Of a stretch of DNA of 64,000 nucleotides, positions 13,540-61,770 are shown in pieces; position 1 is the stretch's first letter; each line of letters starts with the position of its first letter. Both the position numbers and the translations under genes were made by a program. Source of the stretch: Myxococcota bacterium (GTDB lineage: Bacteria; Myxococcota_A; UBA9160; UBA4427); NCBI GenBank assembly GCA_041440805.1, contig JASDVF010000063.1, forward strand, positions 176,524 through 240,523, read 5' to 3'. The notes below the pieces were generated by a model. It did not search any database. It was not told the DNA's origin and saw nothing but the letters and a program-made list of their open reading frames with translations.

Positions 13540-13787
13540 GCACGCTCCGCGTTGAGAGAAGACCAAAAAAATTGGACATCGTCTCGCGTAGATTTGGCGG
13601 CACCTAATTCGGGACCGCGGGGGTTGAGTGCACGTCGGAACGTAGCGAATTTGGCTTGTGTCTTTCCGGCTCCGATGTGCGTTTCGTATGTGATTGGCTC
13701 GGCGCGTTCTCAAATCCTTGGATCGAAGCGAAGTGCGCCGGGCACCCCTCGGGGTGAAGAGGGCCGCGCACACGTTCAATGAACGTT

Positions 13788-24765: not shown

Positions 24766-25920
24766 ATGAAGAGTCCCTACGACGGCGTCGCCATTGTCGG
24801 CGCATACAACACTGTGCAGGCCAAACAACTTCCGAACTGGACCGAGTCGGGGCTAGTTCTCGACGCGATTCGCGGCGCGCTTGGAGATGCTGGGCTCACA
24901 CCCGCAGACGTTGACGGCGTGAACGTTTCGACTTGGGTGAGCCAGCTGAATTCACGGACAGTCTGCCAATGGTTTGGTGGGCAACCGTCTTGGACCGGCA
25001 CGTCGCATCCCGGAATCGAAGCGGTGCTCGAGGCGGCAGCCGCCATTCAGTCGGGCCAGGCCCATACGGTCGTGATTGCGACCGCGCAGTGCGGCGAATA
25101 TACGGAGCGTGAGTCGACGGTGTCCTGGACTCGTCCGGAGAATGAATTCGTCGAGTGCTGGGGACTCTATACCGCTGCAGAGTTCGCCTTGATGGCGCAA
25201 AGACACATGCACATCTACGGCACGCCTCGTGAGGCGTTCTCGGAAGTTGCGGCGGCGATTCGCAGCAATGGCGCTCTGAATCCGGACGCCGTCTTTTACG
25301 GTCGCGAATGCTCGCCAGCTGAAGTGGAGAATTCGCGGATGGTCGCGGATCCCTTTCGGCTTCTGGATTGCTGCATCACGTCAGAGGGCGGTGCCGCAAT
25401 GGTGCTGACGAGTACCGAGCGCGCGAAAGATCTCGATGTGAAGCCGATCTACGTGCTAGGCGGAGCCCTTGATCGTCAGGGGATGTCCTACGTGACCGCA
25501 CCGGTCTGGGAGAAATACGGCTGGGTCGGCCGGCGAGCGGCGGAGATGACCTTCGAGCAATGCGGACTCTCGACGCGTGATGTCGATTTCGCTGAGTTCT
25601 ACGACCCCTTCTCTTTTGAAATCATCCGGCAGCTTGAAGCCTTCGGATTCTGCAAAGAGGGGGAGGGCGCCGATTTCGTGTTGGAAGGCCGCATCCGCAT
25701 CGATGGCGATCTCCCGGTCGCGACCAATGGTGGGATCCTTTCCTACTCCCACGCGGGCGTCGTGCAGCTTCTGCAAAAGCCACTGAACGCGGTCTTGCAG
25801 TTGCAAGGACGCCTAGCGCCAGAGATCACACTTCATCAACCCAAGGTCGCGCTTGCGACGAATGGGGGTTCGGGCGCGCTCTTCTGCGACGTCATGGCCC
25901 TGGGGAGCGAGCCCGTATGA
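24766..25920 (+). CDS. thiolase-superfamily protein (SCP-x/lipid-transfer-protein type) lacking the catalytic cysteines
   Basis: 384 aa. GVAIVGAYNT..., NGGILSYSHAG, ALATNGGSGA. TSHPG occupies the position of the nucleophile Cys loop, and YDPF replaces the SCP2-thiolase HDCF motif (by-eye alignment). Confidence 0.8.
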   Translation: MKSPYDGVAIVGAYNTVQAKQLPNWTESGLVLDAIRGALGDAGLTPADVDGVNVSTWVSQLNSRTVCQWFGGQPSWTGTSHPGIEAVLEAAAAIQSGQAHTVVIATAQCGEYTERESTVSWTRPENEFVECWGLYTAAEFALMAQRHMHIYGTPREAFSEVAAAIRSNGALNPDAVFYGRECSPAEVENSRMVADPFRLLDCCITSEGGAAMVLTSTERAKDLDVKPIYVLGGALDRQGMSYVTAPVWEKYGWVGRRAAEMTFEQCGLSTRDVDFAEFYDPFSFEIIRQLEAFGFCKEGEGADFVLEGRIRIDGDLPVATNGGILSYSHAGVVQLLQKPLNAVLQLQGRLAPEITLHQPKVALATNGGSGALFCDVMALGSEPV

Positions 25921-26345
25921 GCGACTCAACGCCGGCGACTGGACGACCGCAGACGCCGCTTCCGCAGCCGACGCAGCTCTCGAAACCCTATTGGGAAGCG
26001 TGCCGGGAAGGCCGCCTTACCGTTCAGCGATGTAAGAGTTGCGATGGCTATGTGTTCATTCCGCAGCCCTGTTGCGGGACCTGTCTGAGTGAAGAGCTCG
26101 AATGGGTGGAATCGTCAGGGAAGGGCACGCTCTATAGCTTTACGACGGTCTACCGGCCGCAACAGCCGACTTTTGAAGTGCCCTACACGGTCATCGTGGT
26201 GGAGTTGGAAGAGGGGTACTACATGCTTTCCAACTTGATCGGCGTCGAACCTGACGAGATCAAGATCGGAACGCCGCTGGAAGTCTTCTTTGAAGAACGA
26301 TCCGAGGAGATTTCCTTGCCGTTCTTTCGAGTCCGCGCCGAATAA
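25917..26345 (+). CDS. DUF35 OB-fold / rubredoxin-like Zn-ribbon protein (thiolase partner)
   Basis: 142 aa. ATGA overlap with the thiolase-like gene. Zn ribbon CKSCDGYVFIPQPCCGTC followed by an OB-fold segment. Confidence 0.85.
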   Translation: MSDSTPATGRPQTPLPQPTQLSKPYWEACREGRLTVQRCKSCDGYVFIPQPCCGTCLSEELEWVESSGKGTLYSFTTVYRPQQPTFEVPYTVIVVELEEGYYMLSNLIGVEPDEIKIGTPLEVFFEERSEEISLPFFRVRAE

Positions 26346-31425: not shown

Positions 31426-31763
31426 GAAGCGCAGCATGAGCAGCGAGCGTACGCAGGAATAAAGGGGCGAGCGTGACGATCCTCGTGTGAAAGGGCGCAA
31501 ACTCTTCCCCATCGCCGCGCTCACCTAGGGGCAATTCACTACTTTTTTGTATAAGAGTCAAGTAAGGCCGTTCCGAACCAGAGTGACCATGGGTCACATT
31601 CACCATGCTGCGTGTTAAGGATGCCCTTTTAACACAAGCCTGCTTCTTTAATGCACAGGAAGTTCGCGTATCAGAAAATGCTCGACCCGAGGCAAGGTGT
31701 GTGGGTCGCCAACCTCCGCTGGCAAAATGTAAAACGTGCAGAGAAAATTACAGACTTGATCGA

Positions 31764-32456
31764 ATGGAGACGGACATCGAAAAGTTGATCTACGTGTTGA
31801 TGGATGGTGCAGAGGGGCAGGGCAGCCTCGTTGAGCGGATGGCAGAGGGTGTCGTGTCGGCCGCACGTTCGGCCGGTGCGGAACGGCTCGCCGTATTCGT
31901 GCCGGACTACACGGATGAGATTCGTGAACGCTGTGCGGGCCGACTCGGCGGTGCCATTGATCGGCTCTCGTCGGTCTTTGAATGTTGGGTGCCGGCCCTT
32001 GATTCACGGGGTGCGATCGAAGAAGCGTTGTCACCACTCGCGGGCGAAGTCTGGGGATACTTGGTCACGGAGTCGACTTTGGCCGAATGCCCGCATGCCG
32101 TAGACGATGGGGAGCGCGTTCCGGGGATCACGCAGTGGGGAATTAATGACAAGCCGAAAGGCGTCGCTCTCGATGACTTCTATCGCGAATGGGCGGTTCA
32201 TTCAAAGCTGTCTTTCGATCTTCACCCGACGCGACAATCCTATATTCGAAATGCGGTCGCTCGGCGCCTAACGACCTCGGCGCCCGCCTATCTCGGGATC
32301 GTTTTGGAACGATTCCCTCGGCTTGAGGACTTCGTGGATGAGTCGATCTACTTCGGGGATCCAGCGGTCGTTCGTGAGATGATTCAGCACGTTCCGTCGT
32401 TCTACGATTTCGCGACTGCCATGACGGGTGGGCTCAGCGAGTATCGGTGGTCTTGA
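31764..32456 (+). CDS. hypothetical protein (230 aa)
   Basis: Trimmed to the ATG at 31764 (METDIEKLIYVLMDG...). Coding-like composition. No family recognised. Confidence 0.5.
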   Translation: METDIEKLIYVLMDGAEGQGSLVERMAEGVVSAARSAGAERLAVFVPDYTDEIRERCAGRLGGAIDRLSSVFECWVPALDSRGAIEEALSPLAGEVWGYLVTESTLAECPHAVDDGERVPGITQWGINDKPKGVALDDFYREWAVHSKLSFDLHPTRQSYIRNAVARRLTTSAPAYLGIVLERFPRLEDFVDESIYFGDPAVVREMIQHVPSFYDFATAMTGGLSEYRWS

Positions 32457-33663: not shown

Positions 33664-34845
33664 TTAGAGTGATTCCGGCTCGAGACCAAAGCGCTCCATG
33701 TATGGACCGAATGATTCACGGATCCTAACGGGATCGACACCGTATTCCTCGGGCGAATAGCGATGGATCCCGTGCTTGCCCTTCGGATTATCTGCGATGA
33801 ACACTTTCATGCGGTCTGCAGCTTGGCCGGTCAGAGGCAATCCGAAGGCGTCATAAATTTTCTCGACGACGCCGAATTGATCTGCGACGAAGTCCTGAAA
33901 ATGCATCTCGAAAAACTGTGCCTGAGGATGGTTCTTTCCGTCTCGGACTTGGATCGACCGCTCGAGCATGGTTTTGATTCGCGCTGTCCAATCCTCTGCG
34001 ATCTCAATTGGATCGACTTCGTCGCTGCCCATGCTGCGCACGAGGCTTGTTAGGCTCGCGTAGGAAGTCATGGACTTGACGGGGTCTCTATGGGTGAAGA
34101 CGATTCGCGCGTCAGGATAGCGAGCGAGAAGATGTTCGAGTCCCCACATATGAGCGCCGGTTTTTAGAACCCATCGATCGCGCATGACTTTCCAGCCAAG
34201 ATGCTGGAGCTGCCATTCGTGGAACTCATAGACTTTTTCGTAGTCGGCCTCGTGGTCGACCCAGTCTTGGTAGCTGGGCACGCGGAACTGATTGTGGAAG
34301 AGTGGCGACACCATGGTGTCCGCCATAGTCGTCACGCATTCCTGCGAAAGCCGCGCACCCATAGGGTGCATCGCCTTAAAGGCGGGAATCTGTAAATCGA
34401 CTCCTGGGAAAGTCGCATCGCAGGCGTCGATCCGCGGATCGTTCTCGAAGGTCTCGGGTTCCGGCGGCGGCGACGGGAACATCGTTTCCCAGGTGAGCGG
34501 CGCGCGACTGTCCGGGTCCTGCGCCAGGATGTCGTGCAGGATCGTTGAGCCCGTGCGCGGCATGCCGACGACTACCACAGGGGCGACGATTTTTTCATGC
34601 GCGATTTCGGGATGCGCCTTCCGGTCCTCGATGTAGTTGAGGCGATTCACGGTGGAGAGAACGGCTCGTTCCCGGGCGATCATGCGACCGATCGGGTTGA
34701 GTCGAGCTTCTTCCTCAAGAGATTCGCTTAGGCGATTCAACCCTTCGAGGAATTGTTCATCTCCCGTGTCGGTCAGGTTTCGCGCGCGAAGGCTCGCCTC
34801 TTCGAGGACGGCTTCAGGAGATAATTCACTTCGCGATTCGCTCAT
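33664..34845 (-). CDS. sulfotransferase family protein (PAPS-dependent)
   Basis: 393 aa. 5'-PSB loop VVVGMPRTGSTILHDIL. Colinear with the paralogue at 38059..39336. Confidence 0.8.
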   Translation of the reverse strand: MSESRSELSPEAVLEEASLRARNLTDTGDEQFLEGLNRLSESLEEEARLNPIGRMIARERAVLSTVNRLNYIEDRKAHPEIAHEKIVAPVVVVGMPRTGSTILHDILAQDPDSRAPLTWETMFPSPPPEPETFENDPRIDACDATFPGVDLQIPAFKAMHPMGARLSQECVTTMADTMVSPLFHNQFRVPSYQDWVDHEADYEKVYEFHEWQLQHLGWKVMRDRWVLKTGAHMWGLEHLLARYPDARIVFTHRDPVKSMTSYASLTSLVRSMGSDEVDPIEIAEDWTARIKTMLERSIQVRDGKNHPQAQFFEMHFQDFVADQFGVVEKIYDAFGLPLTGQAADRMKVFIADNPKGKHGIHRYSPEEYGVDPVRIRESFGPYMERFGLEPESL

Positions 34846-38058: not shown

Positions 38059-39336
38059 TCAAATTTCGCTGGCGACACCAAAATATTCTTGGAAGGGTCG
38101 GAATGCAGCGCGCAGAGCGGCGATTGTTTCGGCGTCACCTAGGTCGTAGTCATGCTTTCCGAATTTGTCCTTCGGCTTGTTTCGAATGTAATCGAGCATG
38201 GCGTTCTTCGAGCGCGACGAGAGAGGCATGCCGAGACCGCTGTAGAGCCTTTCGAGTTCTGTGTCGGGGTCGGCGAAGAACGCGAGATAGTCGACCGGGG
38301 AGATTCGATCTTTGGGAATCGATCCCGCTTCCATCCAATCGATCATATCTTCGAGGGTTTGATAGGACTGCTTCCCGTCTACCGATTTCCCAAACCCCTT
38401 CACGAGGGTCGAGTCGTCGCTTCGCATGTAGTAGAGGACGCCGCTGACGTCGACGACGGAAGCGGCGGACTTCACGGGGTCGCGCAGCATGAGAGCGAGT
38501 CGCGCATCGGGGTAGGCGTCGAAGAGCGCTGGGAGCACGGGTAGGTGGGTGGGGCCCTTAAGCAGCCAATGATGCGGCCGGCCGGTCGATTGCAAGATCT
38601 GCAGGATCTTCTTGTGCCACGCAAAAGCAGACGCGTGATCATTTTCTGCGACATAGCTCGTGTAGTTCGGAACATAGAAGGATGCAGAGAAGGCGTACGA
38701 CACGAAGGACGAGTAGGTGAACTCGATACATTCGACGGGAAGCTCAGGGCCGACCTTATGCATAGTCGCCCATTCCGGCGTGATGCGGTCTTGCAGGCCG
38801 ACGACGCCTCCCGCTTCCGCGATCCGTGGGTCAGGCTGAGCATCCCCGGGCGCCGGCGGCGGCACGGGGTATTTGGCTTCCCACATTCGAACCGTTCGAG
38901 CATCGGGATCCGCGCCGAGAATCTCTTGCATGATCGTTGTGCCGGAGCGCGGCAAGCCGATGATGAAGACGGGGGATTCGATTATTTCGTCTTCGACTTG
39001 TGGGTGACGCTTGATCCAGTCGATAACACGTAGTCGACCTTCTAGATGAATCAATAAATCGGAGCGGGTCATGATACGGCCGAAAAGATGTAAGTCCGCG
39101 GTCTCTTCGAGGTCCGAGAGCAGGATGCGAAAGGGTTCTATCCAATCGTCGTCCCCGAAATCGGAAAGCCCCGTGTTGTCGCAGGCCGCGCGAAGCAGCG
39201 ACTCCTCATCGAGGGGAACGACGCCTCGCGCATCGAGTTGTCGGCCTACGTCGATAAACTCGCGCGCCCATTCCGGGCGCGGCTTAGGCTGGTAGAGAAC
39301 GGCATTGCTGTCAATTTCGGATTTATTCTCAGCCAT
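38059..39336 (-). CDS. sulfotransferase family protein (PAPS-dependent)
   Basis: 425 aa. 5'-PSB loop VFIIGLPRSGTTIMQEILGADPD. Paralogous to 33664..34845. Confidence 0.8.
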   Translation of the reverse strand: MAENKSEIDSNAVLYQPKPRPEWAREFIDVGRQLDARGVVPLDEESLLRAACDNTGLSDFGDDDWIEPFRILLSDLEETADLHLFGRIMTRSDLLIHLEGRLRVIDWIKRHPQVEDEIIESPVFIIGLPRSGTTIMQEILGADPDARTVRMWEAKYPVPPPAPGDAQPDPRIAEAGGVVGLQDRITPEWATMHKVGPELPVECIEFTYSSFVSYAFSASFYVPNYTSYVAENDHASAFAWHKKILQILQSTGRPHHWLLKGPTHLPVLPALFDAYPDARLALMLRDPVKSAASVVDVSGVLYYMRSDDSTLVKGFGKSVDGKQSYQTLEDMIDWMEAGSIPKDRISPVDYLAFFADPDTELERLYSGLGMPLSSRSKNAMLDYIRNKPKDKFGKHDYDLGDAETIAALRAAFRPFQEYFGVASEI

Positions 39337-46624: not shown

Positions 46625-47743
46625 CTAGGGCGCGACGGCGTCCATCGTTTCGAAGCCGTAGGGATGGTAGATCCCGAAACATGCATTCTCATGCATGCCG
46701 TATCCGATTTCGCCGGTAGACAGTTCCCATCGACAGAGCATCTCGTTAAGCCCCTGCACTTCGGCAAATTGCTTCGGGTCACTCAGGTCCCAGGAGAGTC
46801 CCTCGACTTTGAGAGGGCCTTGGTAGTGGCCCAGTCCCCAATCCTCTCCTGGGCGATAACCGGACCCACCTAACAGGTAGTTCGTACGGAGTGGAGTGCC
46901 GACAATTCGAATGTCGGTATTCGCGAATGTGAGAACCGTCTGGGCTATTTCGCGTGTTCCCGGCTTCCAAGTGATCTCATGCTTCGGACTGCCCAGATGA
47001 AAGGTTGGGCCATCAAGCCCAAGCCTCGGAACCTTGACCGCCTCTTCCAAGTAGCGATTGCCGTCCTTATCCTCGTCGAAGTAGACCTTGATCATGAAAT
47101 CATCGAATTGCATCGGGATCCAGTTGTGAAAATGCCCGAATGCACCGTCCGGCCGCGAGTTCGCAAGGATGCCCTGGGGCTCCATCTCGCCCGTGTTCGG
47201 TCGAACGCCCCAGGAATGATCTCGTGCGCCTTTCCATCTGTCGGGAGTGACGTCGTAGCGCTTACCCGCAACGTTGATATGTCCCGAGTAATTACCGACC
47301 TGCGCGAAGCGCATGGTGTGTTCGGTTAGGCGATTCCCCGAGCGTCGAATCATGGGCGGTTCTTCGAGGGCGGGGACGAATCCTTCGAAGGTGAGATCGA
47401 AGTCGATGTCCCAGTCGTTAGGCTCGCAAGTGACTCGAAGCGTTTCGAGGCCCTTAACGACGTCGACGCCGAAGGGGCCGACGGAGGTGTCGAGCCGGTC
47501 GTGGCCGAGTTCGCGACTAGCACGGACGCAGTAGTGCTTGTCTTCAACGGAAACCGTAACGAAGGCGTCGAGCACGCCGAGGTTCGGATACTGGCCCATG
47601 CCAGTGATCAGGAATATTTCGTCACTGGATGAATGGCAGTTGAAGTAGTACCGGTCGTAGAACGCGCGGTCGCCTGTATAGACGTGATCAAAAGTGTCGG
47701 GTGTTTGGTGGGCGAGGAAATCGTCCATCGGTCCGAGGGGCAT
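46625..47743 (-). CDS. conserved hypothetical protein (372 aa), divergent from a P450 gene
   Basis: Trimmed from 48055 to the ATG at 47743 (MPLGPMDDFLAHQTPDTFDHVYTGDRAFYDRYYFNCH...). Soluble and Trp/Asp-rich. No family recognised. Confidence 0.65.
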   Translation of the reverse strand: MPLGPMDDFLAHQTPDTFDHVYTGDRAFYDRYYFNCHSSSDEIFLITGMGQYPNLGVLDAFVTVSVEDKHYCVRASRELGHDRLDTSVGPFGVDVVKGLETLRVTCEPNDWDIDFDLTFEGFVPALEEPPMIRRSGNRLTEHTMRFAQVGNYSGHINVAGKRYDVTPDRWKGARDHSWGVRPNTGEMEPQGILANSRPDGAFGHFHNWIPMQFDDFMIKVYFDEDKDGNRYLEEAVKVPRLGLDGPTFHLGSPKHEITWKPGTREIAQTVLTFANTDIRIVGTPLRTNYLLGGSGYRPGEDWGLGHYQGPLKVEGLSWDLSDPKQFAEVQGLNEMLCRWELSTGEIGYGMHENACFGIYHPYGFETMDAVAP

Positions 47744-48032
47744 AGTCACTCCGTTGGTGCCTGACTGGCACGCTAGATACATAAAGCCGAAAACGAGGCG
47801 TTTTCGACTGTCTTCGATCCTATCCAAAATTCGGGTGCGAGGGGAAGGGCCATACTCAATCTTGTGGGGCGTAGATGAGCGGATGCGTAGGTGGGGAGGT
47901 GGGTAGGTGCGTGGATCAAAGAGGATCTCCGTCTTGGCAGGGATTGATGAGTTCGAATCTGCTTGACGTACTTCATGGGGGTCGTCACGCTTCTGAGTCA
48001 ACGGCGAGCGTGAAGCTGGCAAGGAGATCGAG

Positions 48033-49256
48033 ATGAGCACGACCGCGCAGGACATCGACCCCTTCGAGGCCTTCGATCGCGCGATGGGATCCGATAGTTG
48101 CCTCGATCCCTATCCGGAATTCGCAGCCCTGCGGGCCAAGGGTGGAATCGTCGAGCAAGAACCGCCGACCGGAGCGGGGGGTGCTTCGCTCGGCGCGACC
48201 GACGGGCGGACCTTCCTCGCTGTCTCTCACGACGCGGTTTCCGAAGTGCTCCGAGAGGGTCGCGTCTTTTCTTCGAGCGCGTATAAAGAGACGATGGGCC
48301 TCGTGATGGGCCCGAATATTCTGGTGATGGATGAGCCGGAGCACGGTCGCTATCGCAGTTTGATCCAGAAGGCCTTCAGCAAGAAGGCGCTCGAACAATG
48401 GGAAGAGGATCTCGTTCGCCCCGTCGTGACTGAGCTGGTCGATCAATTCGCGGATCGTGGACATGCCGACCTCGTGCGCGAATTGACCTTTCCTTTTCCG
48501 GTCCATGTGATCGCTGGCATGCTCGGGCTTCCAAAGGAAGACCTGCCGCAATTTCACGTGTGGGCGGTCGAACTGATTAGCATCGCGATCGATTTTCAGA
48601 CCGGCCTCAATGCCTCCAAAAAGTTAGGCGAATACCTCACGCCCTTTATCGAAGCTCGACGGAAAGAGCCTGGGGTCGACCTGATCAGTGTTCTCGTGAC
48701 GGGGGAACTGGATGGCCAGCGTCTCGACAACGAGCACGTCCTGGGATTTCTACGGCTACTTCTCCCCGCCGGAGCCGAGACGACCTATCGGTCTTCCAGC
48801 AATCTCTTGTATGGGCTTCTGACGAACACTGAGCAGCTTGCCGCGCTGGACCGCGATCGCAGCTTGATGATTCAGGCAATCGAGGAAGGACTCAGGTGGG
48901 AAGTGCCTTTGACGGGGATCGGGCGAGTTTGTACGGAAGACACGGAAGTCGCAGGGGTGAAAATTCCTGCGGGCTCCCAAATTCAGGTCGTGATCGGATC
49001 CGCTAATAGGGACGAGTCACGCTTCGAGGATCCAGACCGCTTCGATATCCATCGCCCGACGCGCCAACACATGTCCTTCGCATTCGGTCCTCACCGGTGC
49101 CTCGGGATGCATCTCGCGCGGATGGAAACAAAAGTCGTCATCGAGACGCTGCTCGACCGTCTGCCTAATCTCCGCCTCGACCCCGAGGAAAAGGACGTAC
49201 AGATCGTAGGCCGCGGCTTTCGAGCTCCGCGCAGACTGCCGGTGCTCTTCGGCTAG
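48033..49256 (+). CDS. cytochrome P450
   Basis: 407 aa. Heme-thiolate loop FAFGPHRCLGMHLA. AGAETT (I-helix) and ExxR (EEGLRWE). Confidence 0.9.
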   Translation: MSTTAQDIDPFEAFDRAMGSDSCLDPYPEFAALRAKGGIVEQEPPTGAGGASLGATDGRTFLAVSHDAVSEVLREGRVFSSSAYKETMGLVMGPNILVMDEPEHGRYRSLIQKAFSKKALEQWEEDLVRPVVTELVDQFADRGHADLVRELTFPFPVHVIAGMLGLPKEDLPQFHVWAVELISIAIDFQTGLNASKKLGEYLTPFIEARRKEPGVDLISVLVTGELDGQRLDNEHVLGFLRLLLPAGAETTYRSSSNLLYGLLTNTEQLAALDRDRSLMIQAIEEGLRWEVPLTGIGRVCTEDTEVAGVKIPAGSQIQVVIGSANRDESRFEDPDRFDIHRPTRQHMSFAFGPHRCLGMHLARMETKVVIETLLDRLPNLRLDPEEKDVQIVGRGFRAPRRLPVLFG

Positions 49257-52178: not shown

Positions 52179-52994
52179 ATGCCCCGATTAGGTCTTGCAA
52201 CGCTCAATCATTCGCCGCTTCATGGGCTTCCTACGCAGTGGGAGGCTCATCTCGATGCGGCGTCGCTCGCTGGCTACGACGCAATCGCCCCGGATATTTT
52301 CTGGCTACGCGCGATCGAGGCTGCGGGCGTGCCCCCAGAGCAGCTTGCAGCAGCGATGAGCGATCGGTCTCTCGCCTGCATGGAGATCGCGGGAATAGCG
52401 ATCGGAGAGGAAGAGGCGACTCAGGCCGAATTGTCTGAGCACCTGCGTTATGCGGAGGTACTTGGGGCTGAGTTCGTGAATGCCCGGATCGTTTCGCCTC
52501 TGGATGTGTCCGTGACGGCTCGGGTTCGGGAATGTGCGGAGGCTTTCGCTCGCGTAGGCACACGGCTGGCGATCGAGTTTTCGCGGGGGACGCAGTTGAA
52601 CTCGGTTTCACAAGGCGCGGCTCTGCTTCGTGAAATAGATGTCCCCGGAGCGGGCGTCACTCTGGATACATGGCACTTCTTTCTTCATCCACAGGGTGCG
52701 GAATGGGATGCGCTGGAGGCACTTCCCACTTCCTCGTTCGCGAACGTGCAGCTCTCGGATGGCGTGCCTTATGAGGAAGGTGCTTTCGGGGAAGCGACAA
52801 TGAATCGTCGACGTCTACCCGGCGAAGGGGACTTCGAACTCGCTCGTTGTCTCGAATTAGTCACCACGAAACGCGGAGACGCCTCGGCGTTGCCGATCGT
52901 CGTTGAAGTATTGAGCGAAGCCGAAAGGCAGTATTCTCTTGCGGAGTTCGCTCGCCGCACAGCTGATGCTTCCCGCGCGCTATTTCCCGACTGA
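52179..52994 (+). CDS. sugar phosphate isomerase/epimerase (xylose-isomerase-like TIM barrel)
   Basis: 271 aa. Weak by-eye match to the AP-endonuclease-2/TIM-barrel family (GYDAIAPD..., LDTWHFF). Confidence 0.6.
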   Translation: MPRLGLATLNHSPLHGLPTQWEAHLDAASLAGYDAIAPDIFWLRAIEAAGVPPEQLAAAMSDRSLACMEIAGIAIGEEEATQAELSEHLRYAEVLGAEFVNARIVSPLDVSVTARVRECAEAFARVGTRLAIEFSRGTQLNSVSQGAALLREIDVPGAGVTLDTWHFFLHPQGAEWDALEALPTSSFANVQLSDGVPYEEGAFGEATMNRRRLPGEGDFELARCLELVTTKRGDASALPIVVEVLSEAERQYSLAEFARRTADASRALFPD

Positions 52995-53028
52995 TCGGAA
53001 GCCCTTTTCCATTCTCTTTGGGCGCGAG

Positions 53029-54111
53029 CTAGAAGCCCTTAGTGACGGCGCGTGTCGGTCCGAAGTTGTGGAGGCCCATGCCGTGAAGGTTGCCTAGGCC
53101 CCCGCATACCATCACGATGAGCTCGTCGGGGCGTTCCACGAGATGAACGATGCCGTATGGGTCGACACGTTCGCGCTCTTGGAGCCAAATGCGGTGCGGC
53201 TCGGGAAAGAAGTCAATGGGATGTGCGGCGGCTTCCCATAGGGCTTGCTGCGCGTCTTCGATTTGTGGATAGCGAGCGGCGACGCGGTCGGCCCAGGGCG
53301 GGGGTAGGCAGACCATCGACTCCGCTCCCCAATGACTGATGAAGGCGTTCGTGCCCGGCACTGCCAAGGATTTGCCGATCACTTGGACAAGGTCTTCGGC
53401 GGACTCGGCAGCGACGTCCGCTATATCCATTGTTCCGATACAGCCGTAGGCCGTGACCGCATTGCCCTGAACGCCTCGACGTTCCGCGAGCGGTGCCCAA
53501 GGTGAGCGCTCTTCCCACTCGGCAACGACGATTCCTGTGACCCGCGCGGGTTGGCCGAAAACACTCTTCGAGTTCTCACCGATTTTCTGCCCAGCGACAT
53601 TCCGCATCACAAGGCGAAGCGCGCGCCCGATGGCCGGGGCGGGGCCTGCAACACCGCCAAAACAGCCAGCCTCCATGGGCAGATCAAGTGCGTGTCTCGC
53701 CGGGCCATTAACGAAAATACCGGGCACGACCGAACTTGTTGTCGTGTTGAGTGAGAAGAGATCTAGGGCGGGATCGATACTCGCTTCGATGGCGGCGCAT
53801 AGCAGGGGCATGGATTCCGCAGGAGCGCCGGACATCACCGCATTGATCGCAAGCTTTTCGACTGTGCACCGGCCATCACGCGGGGGCAAGACGCCTAATA
53901 AATCATCGGGGAATCGATTTGATGCTGCGACGAAGCTCCGCACCCGCTCTTCGGTAGGTGGAATCAGGGGAAGGCCATCACCCCAGCCCGATTCCGTCGC
54001 GAGCTTGGCGAAGGCGAACGGGTCGTCGTCGACTTCGAGTCGAGGGCTCGCCAACCAATCGATTTCACATCCCGACGGTCCGCAGGAGCGGTCGAAAGTG
54101 CTGTCTTGCAA
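53029..54111 (-). CDS. hypothetical protein (up to 360 aa) immediately downstream of the UGSC selenoprotein gene
   Basis: Long ORF with coding-like composition. The only starts are TTG at 54111 (47-nt overlap with the UGSC gene) or TTG at 54054 (10 nt after its stop). No family recognised. Confidence 0.6.
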   Translation of the reverse strand: MQDSTFDRSCGPSGCEIDWLASPRLEVDDDPFAFAKLATESGWGDGLPLIPPTEERVRSFVAASNRFPDDLLGVLPPRDGRCTVEKLAINAVMSGAPAESMPLLCAAIEASIDPALDLFSLNTTTSSVVPGIFVNGPARHALDLPMEAGCFGGVAGPAPAIGRALRLVMRNVAGQKIGENSKSVFGQPARVTGIVVAEWEERSPWAPLAERRGVQGNAVTAYGCIGTMDIADVAAESAEDLVQVIGKSLAVPGTNAFISHWGAESMVCLPPPWADRVAARYPQIEDAQQALWEAAAHPIDFFPEPHRIWLQERERVDPYGIVHLVERPDELIVMVCGGLGNLHGMGLHNFGPTRAVTKGF

Positions 54112-54604
54112 TTTCGCGTACCTCTTGCTCGGGAAGACTGTCGAGCGGGTAAGGGAGAACGTGAATGCGTAAACCAGATCGGCCCGCGTTGGCCGCCATG
54201 CTATGCGCGAGAGCTTCGAATTCGGAAGTTACGACGGCGACCGCCGTCTTGCCCTCCCTTAGTGCGACGACTGCGTCGTACACCGTCCAGGAAGTACAGC
54301 TTCCTCAATTACCGAGCCCGCTGAGAACGAGTTCCTGTCGCGCCGCGAATACCTTGAGCTCGGTTAGGGTTCGCTTTGCAGCGTCGCCCGTACGGTCGCC
54401 AGCGCACCACTCCGAGACGGAAGCGCCTTCTTCGCTGAACATCTGCTGCCATTCGGAGCGAACCCAATCGAAGGACCGCCAGGTCAGATCGTATCGGATG
54501 CCTACACGCGCCAGCGGAAGAGAACTGGCGTCAAAGCTCGGTCCCGGATCGGCGTTTACGTCCGGGGGCGATGCGGTTGGGTCAAGAATTGTGAGTCGGG
54601 CCAT
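54065..54604 (-). CDS. UGSC-family selenoprotein (in-frame UGA = Sec at 54305..54307)
   Basis: Track ORFs 54305..54604(-) and 54065..54283(-) share one frame. The first ends at TGA, and the 7 intervening codons read GSCTSWT. Joined product of 179 aa: MARLTILDP...ELVLSGLGN-U-GSCTSWTVYDAVVALREGK...RPLLRTVGM. GGAG lies 6 nt before the ATG at 54604. Hairpins follow the UGA. Confidence 0.75.
54262..54304 (-). other. candidate SECIS-like stem-loops directly 3' of the UGA
   Basis: Minus-strand RNA: UGA GGAAG-CUGUA-CUUCC UGGACG GUGU-ACGAC-GCA-GUCGU-CGCAC. The first hairpin is 5 bp with a 5-nt loop (54304..54290). The second has a 5-bp core that extends to 8 bp with a bulged U (54283..54262). Its loop is about 31 nt after the UGA. 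Confidence 0.4.
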
Positions 54605-54719
54605 GCATTTCTCCTGATCGGTCTGGCGGATCTAGTTGCGGGACCGCCTGAGTGTATGCAAATCGGGGCCGGTGTTGCGACCCGTGGATCCCCGCGAGAG
54701 CGATGGTACTGTGGAGCGG

Positions 54720-55925
54720 ATGTCGCCACCCGCCGCTCTCGCAGGACTGCGTGTCCTTGATCTGACGAACCTATTTGCTGCGCCTCAGGTCGCGGCGACC
54801 CTCGCCGATTTCGGGGCGGATGTCGTGAAGATCGAGCCGCGAAATGGTGATCCACTTCGGCGGATCGGATCCTCGCGAAATGGCGGGTCTCCGGCCTGGG
54901 CACTCGTTGCGCGGAACAAGCGCGCCATCACCCTCGATCTCGATCATGCGGCGGGGATGCGCGTCTTCGAGGGACTCGTCGAGCAGGCAGACGTGTTGAT
55001 CGAAAACCTCACCGCGAAGCTGCTTGAGCGGTGGCAATGCGACTTCGATTCGCTCCTTCGGCGGAATCCGAAGCTCGTGGTTGTCAGCATCAGCTGTTAT
55101 GGACGATCGGGTCCCAACTCGGATCGCGCTGGTGCGGGGACCCTTGCCGAAGCCTTCGCGGGATTCGCGCATATGAATGGGGCTTCGGACGGGCCGCCTA
55201 CGGTTCCCTCACTGCCACTTGGGGACACGCTCGTTGGAATGTCCGGTGTGATCGGCACGATGATGGCGCTCTACTCTCGTGATCGTGCGGGATCGGGGAG
55301 CGGAGCAGGTCAACACGTTGATGTGTCGATGATCGAGCCCGTTCTTCAGCTGCTCGCTTTGCCGCTCGCGAACCATGTCGAAGGTGAAGCGCCGCCACGC
55401 CGGCTGGGCAGTCGGATCGCCGGCGGCGTTCCTCGCAACGTCTACCGTGCGAGGGACGGCGACTATCTTGCGCTCTCGGGAACGACCGACGCTCAGGTCG
55501 GTCGGATTCTTTCGTTGACCGGTCGGGATGGCGCCGACGATCTTGCACGTTTCGCGACCTCTGCGGCCCGGCTAGATGCAGCGGATGCACTCGATGGGAT
55601 CGTAGCTGACTGGATTTCTGCGCGGTCTAGAGCTGAGGCGCTTGCTGCTTTCGAGAAAATCCGAATCCCTGTGGCTCCGGTCAATGACCTTTCGGCGCTG
55701 CTGTCTGATCCTCATCTACTTGAGCGCGCGTCGGTTTCTACCCTCGAAGATGTAACGTTAGGCGAAGTCTACCTTCCGGCGCCGATGCCAAAACTGCGAG
55801 GCACGCCCGGGACCCATAGGCACTTAGGTGCAGCATTGGGTGCGCATAATGCCGAGGTCTATCGAGACTGGCTGGGGATGTCACCGGAAGAAGTGGCGGC
55901 GCTCGCGCGCGAAGAAGCCATTTAG
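54720..55925 (+). CDS. family-III CoA-transferase (CaiB/BaiF)
   Basis: Trimmed to the ATG at 54720. LAGLRVLDLTNLFAAPQVAATLADFGADVVKIEP. Asp loop LPLGDTLVGMSGVIGTMMAL. Confidence 0.85.
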   Translation: MSPPAALAGLRVLDLTNLFAAPQVAATLADFGADVVKIEPRNGDPLRRIGSSRNGGSPAWALVARNKRAITLDLDHAAGMRVFEGLVEQADVLIENLTAKLLERWQCDFDSLLRRNPKLVVVSISCYGRSGPNSDRAGAGTLAEAFAGFAHMNGASDGPPTVPSLPLGDTLVGMSGVIGTMMALYSRDRAGSGSGAGQHVDVSMIEPVLQLLALPLANHVEGEAPPRRLGSRIAGGVPRNVYRARDGDYLALSGTTDAQVGRILSLTGRDGADDLARFATSAARLDAADALDGIVADWISARSRAEALAAFEKIRIPVAPVNDLSALLSDPHLLERASVSTLEDVTLGEVYLPAPMPKLRGTPGTHRHLGAALGAHNAEVYRDWLGMSPEEVAALAREEAI

Positions 55926-55940: not shown

Positions 55941-55991
55941 CGATAGCCCCCTAGAGCCCCCGATAGCCCCCTAGAGCCAACCTATAGCCCC
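55941..55991. repeat. tandem 20-bp repeat (itself a degenerate ~10-bp unit, 5 copies) in a convergent spacer
   Basis: cgatagcccc ctagagcccc | cgatagcccc ctagagcc aa cctatagcccc. The last copy overlaps the stop codon of the gene at 55982..57223(-). Confidence 0.85.
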
Positions 55992-57223
55992 TCGATCCAT
56001 TCGCGAAGTCCCAGCCGTTCGACCGCCGCTGCGCCTCGCTTCGTTACCGCGAGGACCGTCTCACTTCGTTCAGTGAGTGAACTGAGCCCAAGTGGAACGA
56101 CGCCGACCATGAGCGTCTGATACGAAAAGGCTCGGTACTGCTCGAAAGCTTCGTCGAAGGAGAGCGTTACGCCGTGGCGTTCGAGCTCTGCGCAGTAGCC
56201 ACGAATGAGGGCGTCCTCATTTTCTGCGAGCACTTCCGAATCGAGTGAGTTGATCAGGAAATACTGCACATCACGCATGCCCTTGCTCCAGTGCACCGCT
56301 TGAAAGTCGATCATCCCAACCTTGGGGCCCGTCTCCGTCGGGTATTCAAAGCAGTTGCCGAGATGACTGTCGCCGTGGGCGAGGGTGAGAGGGCCTTTGT
56401 ACCACGCGTCGAGGACCGCATCCCATCGGTCGAGCGCGAGTCGACAGGTTTCGACGAGACGCGGGCTTATGAGATCGGGCGCGGCCTTTTGCGCGGGGGC
56501 GAGGGCGGAAGCATTGAGCGCCCGGGTCACGCGCTTCCATTTGGGCGCGGTGTATGTGTTGTATTCGCCGGGAAGCAGAGCCTCTCGTTCTGCTTCGGTC
56601 TTGCCCTCAAAATGGGCATGCATTTCCGCGAAGCTTGCGAGCACACGTTCCGCTTGTTCTGGCGTGGTGCCCGCGGCCATGTCCCGATTGATGAAGAGCT
56701 TTACGCCGGGAGTCTCATGAAGATTCTCTAGCAGCAAGATGAAGCGCGAGCCGCGTTTTGCGGCCGCGTAGACCTTGGGTACGCGCAGAGGGATTTGATG
56801 TGCGAGGCGCTGGCAGAAGAGGACCTCAAGAGGCCAAAAGCCCAGCGTGTTCGCAAAGGATCGTGTCGCCGTTTCTTTGCACGGGATCTTTGCGTAGAGG
56901 GTGCGAGGGGTGTCGTGAACCGGATCGGCTATGCCGATCGTTTGGTCAAATTCGACATCGACTAAGAAGTTGATGCAGTTGCTGCTCTCGAAGTCGACCC
57001 CGGGCAAGCGTGCCGCGATGATCTCTGGAAGTCGCCGGCCGACCTTCGGAGGATAGTCGTCGAGGAGACTGTTAAGTGTCTTTGCATCCGCAATAGATTC
57101 GCGTGAACAAGGTAACGAGCGGCCGAATCGGTCGCCTACCGCATCGGCGCCGATTTGTAGGAGTGAGCTGGCAGTCCGTGCGGCCAGTAGTGTGCCGCCG
57201 ATCAGAGCGTCGCTGCGTGTCAA
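55982..57223 (-). CDS. phosphotransferase-fold kinase (APH/choline-kinase/EcKL-like)
   Basis: 413 aa. TTG start. Brenner-type catalytic motif LAHGDSHLGNCF and metal-binding IDFQ. Confidence 0.7.
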   Translation of the reverse strand: MTRSDALIGGTLLAARTASSLLQIGADAVGDRFGRSLPCSRESIADAKTLNSLLDDYPPKVGRRLPEIIAARLPGVDFESSNCINFLVDVEFDQTIGIADPVHDTPRTLYAKIPCKETATRSFANTLGFWPLEVLFCQRLAHQIPLRVPKVYAAAKRGSRFILLLENLHETPGVKLFINRDMAAGTTPEQAERVLASFAEMHAHFEGKTEAEREALLPGEYNTYTAPKWKRVTRALNASALAPAQKAAPDLISPRLVETCRLALDRWDAVLDAWYKGPLTLAHGDSHLGNCFEYPTETGPKVGMIDFQAVHWSKGMRDVQYFLINSLDSEVLAENEDALIRGYCAELERHGVTLSFDEAFEQYRAFSYQTLMVGVVPLGLSSLTERSETVLAVTKRGAAAVERLGLREWIEGL

Positions 57224-57246: not shown

Positions 57247-58734
57247 TTAGCTGAGGGAAAGCAGCTTATGTGCGCCGCTCATCCGAGTTTGAATATCGAG
57301 CCCCGACGGACATGTACCGGCGCAGGGCGCGGCACATCCCGCACAGACCGACGCGTTCTTTGCGAGCTCTCCGTAGAGGCGCATGCCTTCTTTTTGGGCT
57401 CCGAAATTTTCGAAATACATCCGCTGGCGAAGCACGTCATGGATCGGCAGCTGCTCTTCGCAGCTTTCCAGGCAAGCACCACAATGAGGACGACAGTAGT
57501 TGTCTGTTGTGAGTTCGCTGTAGCGATCGAGCACTGCGACGTCCTGGGGCCGAAGGGATTGTCCGGACGCGTAGAGGAATTCGTCGAGCTGCCCGGTCTC
57601 CCAGAGTGAGATGACGAGGCAGGACACGCTTGGATTCGAGAGCACCCACTTGAAACTTGCCTGGGTGAATGAATCGCGCTCGTCCGGCGACCAGTTCAGG
57701 AAATGATGCATCGATCCGCGCAAGGTCTTCATACCGACGATCCCAATATCTTTGGCGGCGGCGCGATTGATGATGTTTTCGAGGCTGGGCCAGGCGCCAA
57801 AATGATAGGCGAGCATCATGACGTCGAAGCGGTCGCTCTCGACGGCTGCGCTCGCGACGGCTTCTAAGTTAGGCGTGTGGGTCGATACGCCGAGGAAGCG
57901 AACCTTGCCCTGCTCTTTGAGTCGATCGAAGGCTTCATGGACGTTTGGGTCCATCAGGCGATCAACGGAATCGCAGGAATGGATGTGGACGAGATCCACC
58001 CAGTCGGTCTGAAGTCGCGTGAGGCTGCCTTCGACTGCCTGCATGTAGTCTTCGACGCTCGATCCAGGCGCCAGGTGTCCGTTGGGAAGGCAGAACTTGG
58101 TCGCGACGAACATCTTGTCGCGCTGGCCCTTCATGGCCTCGCCGAAGCGCTTTTCGGAACCGGACTCGCTGTAGTCGGGGGCCGTATCGAAGTAGTTGAT
58201 GCCGCGATCAATCGCTTCGCGGGTGACTTCGACGGTTTGTCGTCCGCCCGTGCTTGATCCAGAGCCGAGGGAAATGTCAGACACGAAGGCGTTTGTTCTG
58301 CCGAGTCGTCGATAGCCTTCGACGCGTGCCCCGGCCCATTCGTCACGAGAGACGTCGGACTTGTATTCTGGCCTGACAAGAAAAATGTTCTTGGCTGTGA
58401 TACTGCCCCATTTTCGATTTGGGATGATCGCTGCGGCGAGGCTGGCCGCGATGCCACCTGTCGTGCCTAATGCGGCTGTTAGGAATCGACGCCGGCCGCT
58501 CGGCGATTTCAGCTGGCCGTCCGCATCTTTGCTTGGGGCGGCGGCGGCGCGAATGGTGAAAACGATGCTGATGCCCACCGATACGAGCACCATTGCCGCG
58601 ACGCCTAGCTCGCTACTGGCGGCGACCCGGCCCTCGATGCGATGTCCCAAAAACTTGCTGAGGTAGAGCGCAGAAAAACTGATCGAGAGGAGCCATGAAA
58701 GAAGTGCAATTCGGGTGGCGGGCATAGAGCTCAT
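57247..58734 (-). CDS. aldo/keto reductase fused to a C-terminal Fe-S (Cys-cluster) domain, with N-terminal membrane/RR segment
   Basis: 495 aa. AKR core GINYFDTAPDY...FVATKF...RFLGVSTH. C-terminus CRPHCGACLESC...CAGCAAPCAGTCP. N-terminus has two hydrophobic helices, then SGRRRFLTAALGTTGGIAASLAAA. Confidence 0.75.
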   Translation of the reverse strand: MSSMPATRIALLSWLLSISFSALYLSKFLGHRIEGRVAASSELGVAAMVLVSVGISIVFTIRAAAAPSKDADGQLKSPSGRRRFLTAALGTTGGIAASLAAAIIPNRKWGSITAKNIFLVRPEYKSDVSRDEWAGARVEGYRRLGRTNAFVSDISLGSGSSTGGRQTVEVTREAIDRGINYFDTAPDYSESGSEKRFGEAMKGQRDKMFVATKFCLPNGHLAPGSSVEDYMQAVEGSLTRLQTDWVDLVHIHSCDSVDRLMDPNVHEAFDRLKEQGKVRFLGVSTHTPNLEAVASAAVESDRFDVMMLAYHFGAWPSLENIINRAAAKDIGIVGMKTLRGSMHHFLNWSPDERDSFTQASFKWVLSNPSVSCLVISLWETGQLDEFLYASGQSLRPQDVAVLDRYSELTTDNYCRPHCGACLESCEEQLPIHDVLRQRMYFENFGAQKEGMRLYGELAKNASVCAGCAAPCAGTCPSGLDIQTRMSGAHKLLSLS

Positions 58735-60579: not shown

Positions 60580-61770
60580 CTAGATGATCTCGTTCTCGCG
60601 CAAGGACTTCACCTGATCGGAGCTGAGTCCGAACTCAGAAAGCACCTCATCCGTATGTTCCCCAGGATCCGGGGAAGGTCGACGAATTTCGTCGCTCACG
60701 CCATCGAGATGAGTGGCATTTCGAATAATTTCAATCTCGCCTACACCGGGATGCGTCACCTTGGCGGCAACGCCGAGGTGCTTTACCTGCGGGTCGGCGA
60801 AGGTCTGAGCCAGATCGTTGACGGGTCCAGAAGGGATTCCGACTGCGTTCATTCGCTCGACCCAGTCCTCGGTCGTGCGTGGGGCGAGAGCCGTTTCAAG
60901 TTCAATGTTGAGGGCCGCCCGATTCAACGCTCGATCATTCGCGGTGGCGAAGCGGGGATCGTTTTCGAGCTCCGGGCGTTCGAGGATTTCGCATAACGCT
61001 GACCACATTCGGCCCCAGGGAGCAGCGAGGTTCATGTGGCCGTCTCGGGTTGCATACATCCCCATAGGCCCAAGCGTCGGGTGGTCGTTGCCGGCTTGAG
61101 GCGGGACTTCCCCTGCAACGGTAAAGCGCGCCGCTTGGAAGTCGAGCATCCCGATCATCGACTCGAGCAAAGATGTAGTGACATAACGTCCTCGTCCCGT
61201 CCGCTTCCGTTCATGCAGGGCAACGAGAATGCCCACTGCGAGCTGAAGGCCGGCGGTGATATCCGAGATCGCAACGCCGGCACGGACGGGTCCCTGGCCG
61301 GGAATTCCCGTGACGCTCATCATGCCGCCGAGGCCTTGCGCGATTTGATCAACGCCGCCGCGATCGGCGTAGGGGCCCTCCTGCCCGAAGCCAGAGATCG
61401 ATCCCATAACGAGCAGTGGATTGATCTCGTGGACGGTTGCCCAGTCGAAACCCAGTCGGGCTTTCACAGGGGGGCGCATGTTTTCGACCAAGACGTCCGC
61501 ACGCTTGATCATACGATGCAAGAGGGCGCGCCCTTCCTCCCGTTTGAGGTCGAGACTCAAGCTTCGTTTGTTCCTGTGGAGATTCAGGTAGTCAGGAGAG
61601 TGATGAGCGAAGCCGGTATCCGCCCCCGGTCGCTGTTCGATGCGCACGACGTTGGCGCCCCAGTCCGCGAGTTGGCGAACGGCAGTCGGTCCCGCTCGAG
61701 CAATCGTGAGATCGAGAACCAGCAAATCGGAGAGTGGAAGAGCATCGGTTTTTGACGGCGTTTCGGGCAT
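60580..61770 (-). CDS. family-III CoA-transferase (CaiB/BaiF)
   Basis: 396 aa. LSDLLVLDLTIARAGPTAVRQLADWGANVVRIE, GVDQIAQGLGG. Asp loop VAISDITAGLQLAVGILVAL. Confidence 0.9.
   Translation of the reverse strand: MPETPSKTDALPLSDLLVLDLTIARAGPTAVRQLADWGANVVRIEQRPGADTGFAHHSPDYLNLHRNKRSLSLDLKREEGRALLHRMIKRADVLVENMRPPVKARLGFDWATVHEINPLLVMGSISGFGQEGPYADRGGVDQIAQGLGGMMSVTGIPGQGPVRAGVAISDITAGLQLAVGILVALHERKRTGRGRYVTTSLLESMIGMLDFQAARFTVAGEVPPQAGNDHPTLGPMGMYATRDGHMNLAAPWGRMWSALCEILERPELENDPRFATANDRALNRAALNIELETALAPRTTEDWVERMNAVGIPSGPVNDLAQTFADPQVKHLGVAAKVTHPGVGEIEIIRNATHLDGVSDEIRRPSPDPGEHTDEVLSEFGLSSDQVKSLRENEII

Follow-up and report, generated by a model that had tools for sequence, protein, structure and literature searches.

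Two adjacent open reading frames (ORFs) on the minus strand of a 64,000-nucleotide stretch of DNA from a Myxococcota bacterium (contig JASDVF010000063.1, positions 176,524 to 240,523; hereafter the window, with position 1 at its first letter) raise the question of whether they encode two small proteins or a single protein interrupted by an in-frame UGA codon and, in the latter case, what kind of protein this is. The first ORF comprises 99 codons from an ATG (54305..54604), and the second comprises 72 codons from a GTG (54065..54283). The best explanation of the locus as a whole, which we regard as very probable, is a single gene encoding a UGSC-family selenoprotein of 179 residues, in which the UGA is read as selenocysteine (Sec) by SelB and whose product is a flavodoxin-like protein linked to a partner encoded by the next gene. 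The elements in question are the following:

54065..54604, minus strand: predicted coding sequence of the UGSC-family selenoprotein, 179 residues including Sec100, with an ATG at 54604 and the stop TGA at 54067..54065.
54305..54307, minus strand: predicted Sec codon, an in-frame UGA at residue 100, in a column occupied by an invariant cysteine (Cys) in full-length homologues.
54296..54307, minus strand: U-G-S-C motif (UxxC), within the invariant N-C-G-S-C-T-x-W block of the alignments.
54250..54298, minus strand: bipartite hairpin resembling a selenocysteine insertion sequence (SECIS), from the RNAalifold consensus of 11 Sec-type sequences.
53029..54111, minus strand: partner gene of an unnamed family, 360 residues, with a TTG start and a 47-nucleotide overlap with the 3' end of the UGSC gene.

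Read in one frame, 54604..54065 on the minus strand translates as MARLTILDPT...ELVLSGLGN*GSCTSWTVYDAVVALREGK...RTVGM*, comprising 179 sense positions and a stop, with exactly one internal stop, the TGA at codon 100, in the context ...GLGN-U-GSC-TSW. The two listed ORFs share this frame and are separated by 21 nucleotides; the translation and the ORF list thereby return the coordinates, the frame and the codon number that the original prediction had given for a single coding sequence. The initiation signals described there were also found in the sequence: the upstream piece carries the Shine-Dalgarno sequence caGGAGaaatgcATG, comprising GGAG, a 6-nucleotide spacer and then the ATG, whereas no Shine-Dalgarno-like sequence was seen upstream of the GTG at 54283. 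TGA is also an ordinary stop in the window, terminating 17 of the 54 long ORFs, the UGSC gene itself included, so that the recoding is site-specific and the codon is not reassigned genome-wide. A scan of the window for other gene pairs joined by an in-frame TGA disclosed no further convincing selenoprotein candidate, and nothing of note was found in 52900..54800 as regards terminator or promoter consensus sequences.

A search with the joined protein sequence against 5.8 billion proteins gave two classes of match, including (i) full-length proteins of 177-190 residues with 44-53% identity and (ii) 99-residue proteins with 69-97% identity; the only homologues that end at ...GLGN are those cut at the TGA by gene callers. 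At the DNA level, the analysis comprises 82 loci, namely L001 and L002, the DNA of two 99-residue matches, and 80 loci from GTDB species representatives. The critical codon is TGA in ten of ten close relatives (L001-L010, 70-97% identity; their labels are 'Deltaproteobacteria bacterium UBA4427', Myxococcota or, wrongly, Spirochaetaceae 'MYXO' bins), hence in 11 of 11 sequences with the window, and TGC or TGT in all 72 other loci, which belong to Sphingomonadales, other Alphaproteobacteria, Actinomycetes and other groups, so that the expected variation between Sec and Cys at this site is indeed present. The Cys in the UGA column is invariant in the full-length homologues (21- and 63-sequence alignments), the motif N-[U/C]-G-S-C-T-[SG]-W shows no variation among 63 aligned proteins or the 82 loci, and the Pfam match of the joined protein spans the UGA; homologues therefore align across the junction. 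Among the 11 TGA-type genes, the ratio of nonsynonymous to synonymous substitution rates (dN/dS) is 0.25 for the 60 codons before the UGA and 0.09 for the 64 codons after it (+1..+64), and falls to 0.04 in GSCTSWT, the stretch of seven codons (+1..+7) that precedes any possible restart. Given these low values immediately after the UGA, the sequence that follows it must be translated in the same frame: 54604..54065 is one coding sequence, its UGA aligns with Cys and its downstream frame is under selection.

The original prediction had also anticipated that gene callers unaware of Sec would report two small hypothetical proteins, and public records bear this out. L001 and L002 are annotated as 99 residues plus 67 or 72 residues, and in GenBank a TGA-type UGSC homologue on Paracoccus ferrooxidans pFER4 is likewise divided into two hypothetical coding sequences, E3U26_23345 and E3U26_23350 (L083 5411-5980; CP038202.1 1329406-1329975), whose joined frame reads ...AVVGLAN*GSCTSWSV.... 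At the level of annotation, two spurious 'hypothetical protein' calls in the window are thus replaced by one selenoprotein gene, and the same error stands in these public entries. A further variant of the family is found in some actinobacteria, where UGSC proteins bear an N-terminal NifU-like domain.

Folding of the minus strand after the UGA discloses a conserved SECIS-like hairpin (54298..54250) that starts 7 nucleotides past the UGA and comprises (i) a lower helix of 9 base pairs (54298..54289 with 54258..54250), (ii) an internal loop, (iii) an upper helix of 10 base pairs with one bulge (54284..54275 with 54271..54261), and (iv) a 3-nucleotide apical loop, GCA at 54274..54272 (GCR in the consensus), beginning 30 nucleotides after the UGA. 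It is conserved in 11 of 11 Sec-type sequences, with 97.6% of alignment cells paired and compensatory double changes at two pairs (G-C to C-G and C-G to U-A); column shuffles reached the observed values in 14 of 500 cases, and in a control that shifted the 3' partners by 1-3 columns only 40-59% of the cells were paired. The mean minimum free energy of the 60 nucleotides after the codon is -28.8 kcal/mol in the Sec forms versus -21.6 kcal/mol in the 72 Cys forms, and all Sec forms share one hairpin architecture, whereas the Cys forms, despite a slightly higher GC content, are heterogeneous and have no common fold. The criteria published for bacterial SECIS elements comprise a loop of 3-9 nucleotides, an upper stem of 4-16 base pairs, a G within the first two positions of the loop, a UGA-to-loop distance of 16-37 nucleotides and a minimum free energy of at most -7.5 kcal/mol (PMC13188914, Fig. 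2), and the window hairpin lies within all of them (3-nucleotide loop with G first, 10-base-pair stem, 30-nucleotide spacing, -19.6 kcal/mol).

The earlier expectation of stable hairpins directly after the UGA is therefore borne out as regards a conserved hairpin, but not as regards its position, since this hairpin begins 7 nucleotides further on and the 5-base-pair hairpin that does abut the UGA (GGAAG/CUUCC) was rejected as the SECIS element, third-position changes breaking it in L001 and L002. Rfam scans (the window at the gathering threshold, 54000..54700 at E<=10) returned nothing relevant, and none of the models fits the hairpin. A hairpin over the S-W-x-V-H-D codons is also present in three independent TGA-type homologues, including that from Paracoccus (L083), with a GUG loop 19 nucleotides after the UGA, and two metagenomic ones (L088 and L089).

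As regards its family, Pfam places the joined protein (U replaced by C) in PF24696, 'UGSC family': residues 6-176 align with positions 2-169 of the 172 in the profile (E 1.3e-28; 100.7 bits, cut-off 25). The family name given in the original prediction is thereby supported by Pfam, but the NCBIfam model that bears the name, the equivalog NF041046, gave 66.8 bits versus its cut-off of 125, over profile positions 51-141 only; all homologues of about 180 residues that were compared with it, the Cys forms and the Paracoccus Sec form, score 62-88 bits. Judged by these profiles, the window protein is a member of the broader Pfam UGSC family and lies outside the NF041046 equivalog.

The earliest UGSC-containing proteins to be noted were those of Hyphomonas neptunium and of the Olavius delta-1 symbiont (PMC1976440, 2007), and the exemplar of the family is ABI76733.1 from H. 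neptunium (Zhang & Gladyshev, PMC1976440 2007, PMC2398784 2008). In the Global Ocean Sampling (GOS) metagenomes, UGSC is among the most abundant selenoprotein families, represented by 255 sequences with Sec and 21 with Cys, and shows enrichment in samples of non-marine origin; it was described there as having a 'likely Trx-like fold' (Trx, thioredoxin) and grouped with redox proteins (PMC2398784). The family was still uncharacterised in the 2022 and 2026 reviews, and the literature lists it as of unknown function, as the original prediction had stated. The window gene consequently adds a member to a selenoprotein family predicted since 2007-2008 and does not represent a new kind of protein. 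It shares with the known family the PF24696 domain, the U/C-G-S-C motif with its Sec/Cys pair and the hairpin after the UGA, and differs in (i) belonging to a subfamily of about 180 residues below the NF041046 cut-off, (ii) residing in a Myxococcota-type metagenome-assembled genome and not in a marine alphaproteobacterium, and (iii) having a predicted flavodoxin-like fold in place of the thioredoxin-like one guessed in the 2008 paper. Three things are new here for this known family, as set out below: the specific partner with its fusions, the flavodoxin-like fold predicted for UGSC and the context of coenzyme A (CoA)-dependent catabolism.

Were the TGA a genuine stop, the locus would be a split gene or pseudogene giving a 99-residue protein and perhaps an independently initiated one of 72 residues, in keeping with the two pieces annotated by gene callers, the GTG at 54283 and the fact that no Sec machinery was seen in the window. 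Yet the TGA occupies the identical codon in 11 independent assemblies, each of which keeps an intact downstream frame, the stretch of seven codons that separates the TGA from the GTG retains its amino acids through synonymous changes, the GTG has no Shine-Dalgarno sequence, the restart site chosen for the second piece differs between the gene calls of L001 and L002, and the two halves are needed for both the Pfam domain and the fold predicted. A genuine stop is thus scarcely credible, and the conserved TGA codon together with the intact, selected downstream frame effectively excludes a split gene, a pseudogene or a sequencing error.

Read-through without Sec, by a near-cognate Trp or Cys tRNA or by a suppressor tRNA, would give a full-length protein devoid of selenium and agrees with the evidence for full-length translation, which holds whichever residue is inserted, and with the fact that the window and the flanks of L001-L010 disclosed no Sec machinery. 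The codon nevertheless aligns with a catalytic-type Cys, as in a classic Sec/Cys pair, the hairpin of SECIS geometry is conserved only in the TGA forms, UGSC is an established predicted selenoprotein family (PMC2398784, PMC13188914), and in P. ferrooxidans pFER4 the TGA-type UGSC gene and its partner lie 3.3 kb from an annotated selB; we consider read-through of this kind very improbable. The 454-residue ORF beside the Paracoccus selB, suspected to be selA, is actually a DctP solute-binding protein. With the UGA of the window read as Sec, its Myxococcota-type lineage is probably a Sec user.

The fold of UGSC was modelled with AlphaFold2, from a 62-sequence alignment, on P0002, a Cys-form homologue that shares about 52% identity with the window protein. 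The model (predicted local distance difference test score, pLDDT, 94.2; predicted template modelling score, pTM, 0.89) comprises five consecutive β-α units, with C-G-S-C at residues 98-101, between β3 (90-96) and the N-terminus of α3 (99-114). All its top Foldseek matches are flavodoxin-like, including ArsH, azoreductase, WrbA, MdaB, NQO1 and the flavin mononucleotide (FMN) domains of flavodiiron proteins (E about 2e-4, template modelling (TM) score 0.45-0.52), and a flavodoxin-like, five-stranded α/β fold is accordingly predicted for UGSC. The thioredoxin fold comprises a mixed sheet in the order β-α-β-α-β-β-α and is not supported for UGSC, given the five β-α units and the uniformly flavodoxin-like matches. 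A U/CxxC at the N-terminus of a helix is typical of redox-active motifs, and in the P0002 model the motif occupies this thioredoxin-type position, at the start of the helix that follows a strand. The 'redox-type' label that the original prediction attached to the UxxC is thus plausible as regards the motif, but the fold around it would be flavodoxin-like, not thioredoxin-like. The nearest structural neighbours of the predicted fold are the NAD(P)H:quinone/azo reductases ArsH, WrbA, MdaB and AzoR, which nevertheless show only 9-18% sequence identity to UGSC and lack the U/CxxC at helix 3 that is the defining trait of UGSC; no FMN-binding motif, for which no examination was made, is evident in UGSC.

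The partner gene lies directly downstream of the UGSC gene in 79 of the 82 loci (tblastn); of the remaining three, two lie at the end of a contig and the third (L019) is truly devoid of the partner. This locus, L019 6001-7700, from a Jatrophihabitans sp. metagenome-assembled genome, is the only one with downstream sequence in which a different ORF follows the Cys-form UGSC gene. The two genes are adjacent across phyla and in either order, and partner homologues with only about 33% identity still adjoin a UGSC gene. In Paracoccus the TGA-form UGSC gene comes first and the partner next, while in Variovorax SRS16 the order is swapped, the partner preceding a Cys-form UGSC gene, with trxB 2 kb away. 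The TTG start of the partner is conserved, and its N-terminus contains C-G-P-S-G-C and GWGDGLPLIPPT.

A profile search with the partner against 1.84 billion representatives delineated a family of 4,589 clusters at 50% identity, and fusions were examined among the best 150 matches. Thirteen of these are proteins of 508-570 residues whose partner domain spans roughly residues 200-545, and each of the five that were scanned (P0272, P0315, P0339, P0369 and P0373) comprises a complete N-terminal Pfam UGSC domain and a C-terminal partner domain; the motifs of full-length fusions include GLGNCGSCTAW and VGDCGSCTSW. About 25 others of the best 150 are proteins of 410-470 residues with an N-terminal extension of 50-112 residues, and four of four scanned begin with the last 55-67 positions of the UGSC profile. 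For two of these four the DNA was checked, and an upstream ORF joins in frame via a TGA (AFGD*GSCTSWSIHD and SLGD*GSCSSWLVHD). In other organisms UGSC and the partner are therefore joined in a single polypeptide, of which Cys and Sec versions both exist, and these natural fusions, together with the strict adjacency, are strong evidence that the two act as a unit. A 'UGSC/Unknown_1' fusion has been reported in the GOS selenoproteome (PMC2398784, Fig. S1A). It resembles the Cys and Sec fusions found here in joining UGSC to a conserved domain of unknown function and differs from the window, where two separate, overlapping genes are present; Unknown_1 is probably the partner family.

The partner itself gave no match in Pfam or NCBIfam even at E<=10, and a profile search against PDB sequences returned nothing significant. 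Its AlphaFold2 model (pLDDT 83.8, pTM 0.87) had no significant Foldseek match in the PDB (best E 0.05, TM 0.2); Toblerone-fold and PurM-like candidates are not credible (E 0.05-1, TM about 0.2). Invariant residues comprise GDGxP..PT, Asn90, Thr124-Thr125, GRAxRLxxxN, ExxExPWxP, Asn255, Arg315 and Gly337-Gly338. No Cys is invariant across distant partners, and the N-terminal C-G-P-x-G-C is limited to the subfamily of the window, which weakens the idea of the partner as a Cys-based enzyme recycled by UGSC.

Around the pair, several neighbouring genes recur, with counts that rest on tblastn with the neighbours from the window and on precomputed gene calls:

54636..55925, plus strand: divergently oriented family III CoA-transferase (Pfam PF02515, E 4e-103).
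52179..52994, plus strand: xylose-isomerase-like triosephosphate isomerase (TIM) barrel, AP_endonuc_2 (Pfam PF01261).
55982..57223, minus strand: EcKL/APH-type small-molecule kinase (Pfam PF02958/PF01636).
57247..58734, minus strand: aldo-keto reductase of 495 residues, with a twin-arginine-like N-terminus (RRRFLTAALG) and a Cys-rich C-terminus (CxxCxxxC ... CxxCxxxCxxxC).

A family III CoA-transferase homologue lies within 6 kb (<=6 kb) of the UGSC gene in 29 of the 82 loci and also in L086 (Sphingobium chlorophenolicum) and L087 (an unrelated 1.7-Mb contig). The TIM-barrel gene adjoins the pair in L086, L087, L001 and L002, the kinase is present in ten of ten Sec-clade loci and near the pair in L087, and the aldo-keto reductase, whose Cys-rich tail is suggestive of iron-sulfur clusters, is conserved near UGSC in nine of ten Sec-clade loci. 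Further neighbours in the window include a major facilitator superfamily transporter and two cytochromes P450. The Sec-clade loci share the neighbours of the window, and the same families flank the pair in L086 and L087, where acyl-CoA ligase, short-chain dehydrogenases/reductases (SDRs), enoyl-CoA hydratase and sulfotransferase genes are also found.

From these elements a mechanism can be proposed. By the standard bacterial route, the UGA at codon 100 would be read as Sec by the SelB-GTP-Sec-tRNA(Sec) complex, with SelB recruited by the hairpin inside the coding sequence, 7-55 nucleotides downstream of the UGA. The predicted fold and the motif would place Sec100-Gly-Ser-Cys103 at the N-terminus of helix 3, with Sec100 as the nucleophile and Cys103 as the resolving residue, cycling between the selenol/thiol and an Se-S bond. 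On the genomic evidence, UGSC does not function by itself but works jointly with the 360-residue protein encoded immediately downstream; the partner, which has Arg, Asn, Thr and Glu among its invariant residues and no universal Cys, might bind a carboxylate or CoA-type substrate and the UGSC subunit might supply the redox chemistry, being re-reduced by a thioredoxin-reductase-type (TrxB) or Nfu-type donor. Together the two would act within a cluster for CoA-dependent catabolism comprising the family III CoA-transferase, acyl-CoA ligase, TIM-barrel isomerase/dehydratase, SDRs and P450s. Such a two-part enzyme, in which the partner holds the substrate and UGSC performs the redox step, is proposed tentatively and may well turn out otherwise.

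A different account takes UGSC as a free-standing, general thiol/selenol-disulfide oxidoreductase, a thioredoxin-like antioxidant whose neighbours are incidental. The UxxC motif would suit it, and a thioredoxin-like fold and a redox grouping had been suggested for the family (PMC2398784), but the predicted fold is flavodoxin-like, one specific partner family adjoins UGSC in nearly every locus and is naturally fused to it, and the UGSC genes sit in catabolic clusters, not in stress regulons. We consider this account improbable and retain the partner-linked, flavodoxin-like selenoprotein.

For that reading, a functional analogy is offered by GrdB and PrdB (PF07355), the substrate-specific selenoprotein B subunits of glycine and D-proline reductase, with their partner proproteins GrdE and PrdA, in which a UxxC selenoprotein is likewise obligately paired with a substrate-carrying subunit encoded by a neighbouring gene and in which Sec is the nucleophile, a Cys resolves it and an external dithiol serves as reductant. 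The likeness is an analogy and not a membership: neither UGSC nor the partner matches PF07355 or PF09338 at E<=10, Foldseek gave no structural neighbour of the GrdB/PrdB type for UGSC, the partner, unlike GrdE and PrdA, has no universally conserved Cys able to give the pyruvoyl group, and the UGSC hosts possess aerobic-type catabolic clusters and are not Stickland fermenters. The wider proposal that UGSC and its partner of 330-365 residues form an unrecognised, widespread reductase of aerobic heterotrophs, acting in CoA-dependent organic-acid catabolism as a third 'selenoprotein B-like' system beside glycine and proline reductase, is more doubtful still. If true, it would define a previously unrecognised enzyme, the partner half of which has no Pfam family or detectable relative in the PDB. 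The partner, the fold and the CoA-transferase/ligase context in any case give this abundant and so far uncharacterised family a testable functional hypothesis, and cultured hosts of the Cys form, including Sphingobium and Variovorax, offer a handle on the function of UGSC.

Several observations weigh against the reading preferred here. The hairpin of the window is the weakest of the set, with three G-U pairs, and taken alone is no better than shuffled sequences (z -1.0), its significance resting on the comparison with relatives and not on single-sequence energy; the covariation is modest, comprising the two compensatory pairs among closely related sequences, with values that some shuffles reach, and the apical loop, GCR, departs from the commonest G[G/U] pattern. 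None of selA, selB, selD or the tRNA-Sec gene was found in the 64-kb window or in the flanks of the ten related loci L001-L010: ARAGORN detected no tRNA-Sec in the window or in 12 loci, the window being devoid of tRNA genes altogether, and no SelA, SelB or SelD model matched among its 54 long ORFs (Pfam, concatenated polyproteins). The fold is predicted from a 52%-identical Cys homologue and not from the window protein itself, the Pfam, NCBIfam, PDB-profile and Foldseek searches detected no relative of the partner with a known function, and we infer the functional model from genomics and the predicted fold only.

Beyond the UGSC locus, several other genes of the window were noted. An 814-residue ORF at 1926..4370 on the plus strand comprises two tandem family III CoA-transferase domains (PF02515 in two stretches, 606 bits), and two further, single-domain genes of this family are located at 54636..55925 and 60580..61770. 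At 24766..26345, plus strand, a thiolase-like protein (Thiolase_C_1) precedes a ChsH2-type zinc-ribbon/oligonucleotide-oligosaccharide-binding (OB)-fold protein, a pairing characteristic of sterol or branched side-chain breakdown; taken with the numerous acyl-CoA dehydrogenases, SDRs and P450s, this pair suggests that the window is a lipid- or terpenoid-type catabolic island. Sulfotransfer_3 genes are present at 33664..34845 and 38059..39336, both on the minus strand, and also beside the UGSC cluster of S. chlorophenolicum (L086 14774-15940), an association with UGSC that may be recurrent. Three ORFs, at 10346..11758 (plus, 470 residues), 46625..48055 (minus, 476 residues) and 31605..32456 (plus, 283 residues), had no Pfam match at E<=1e-5 in concatenated queries. 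Finally, at 12547..15590 on the minus strand, a Ser/Thr protein kinase gene adjoins that of a 600-residue membrane protein with PMT_2 glycosyltransferase and tetratricopeptide repeat (TPR) domains, a gene pair consistent with a Myxococcota-type genome.

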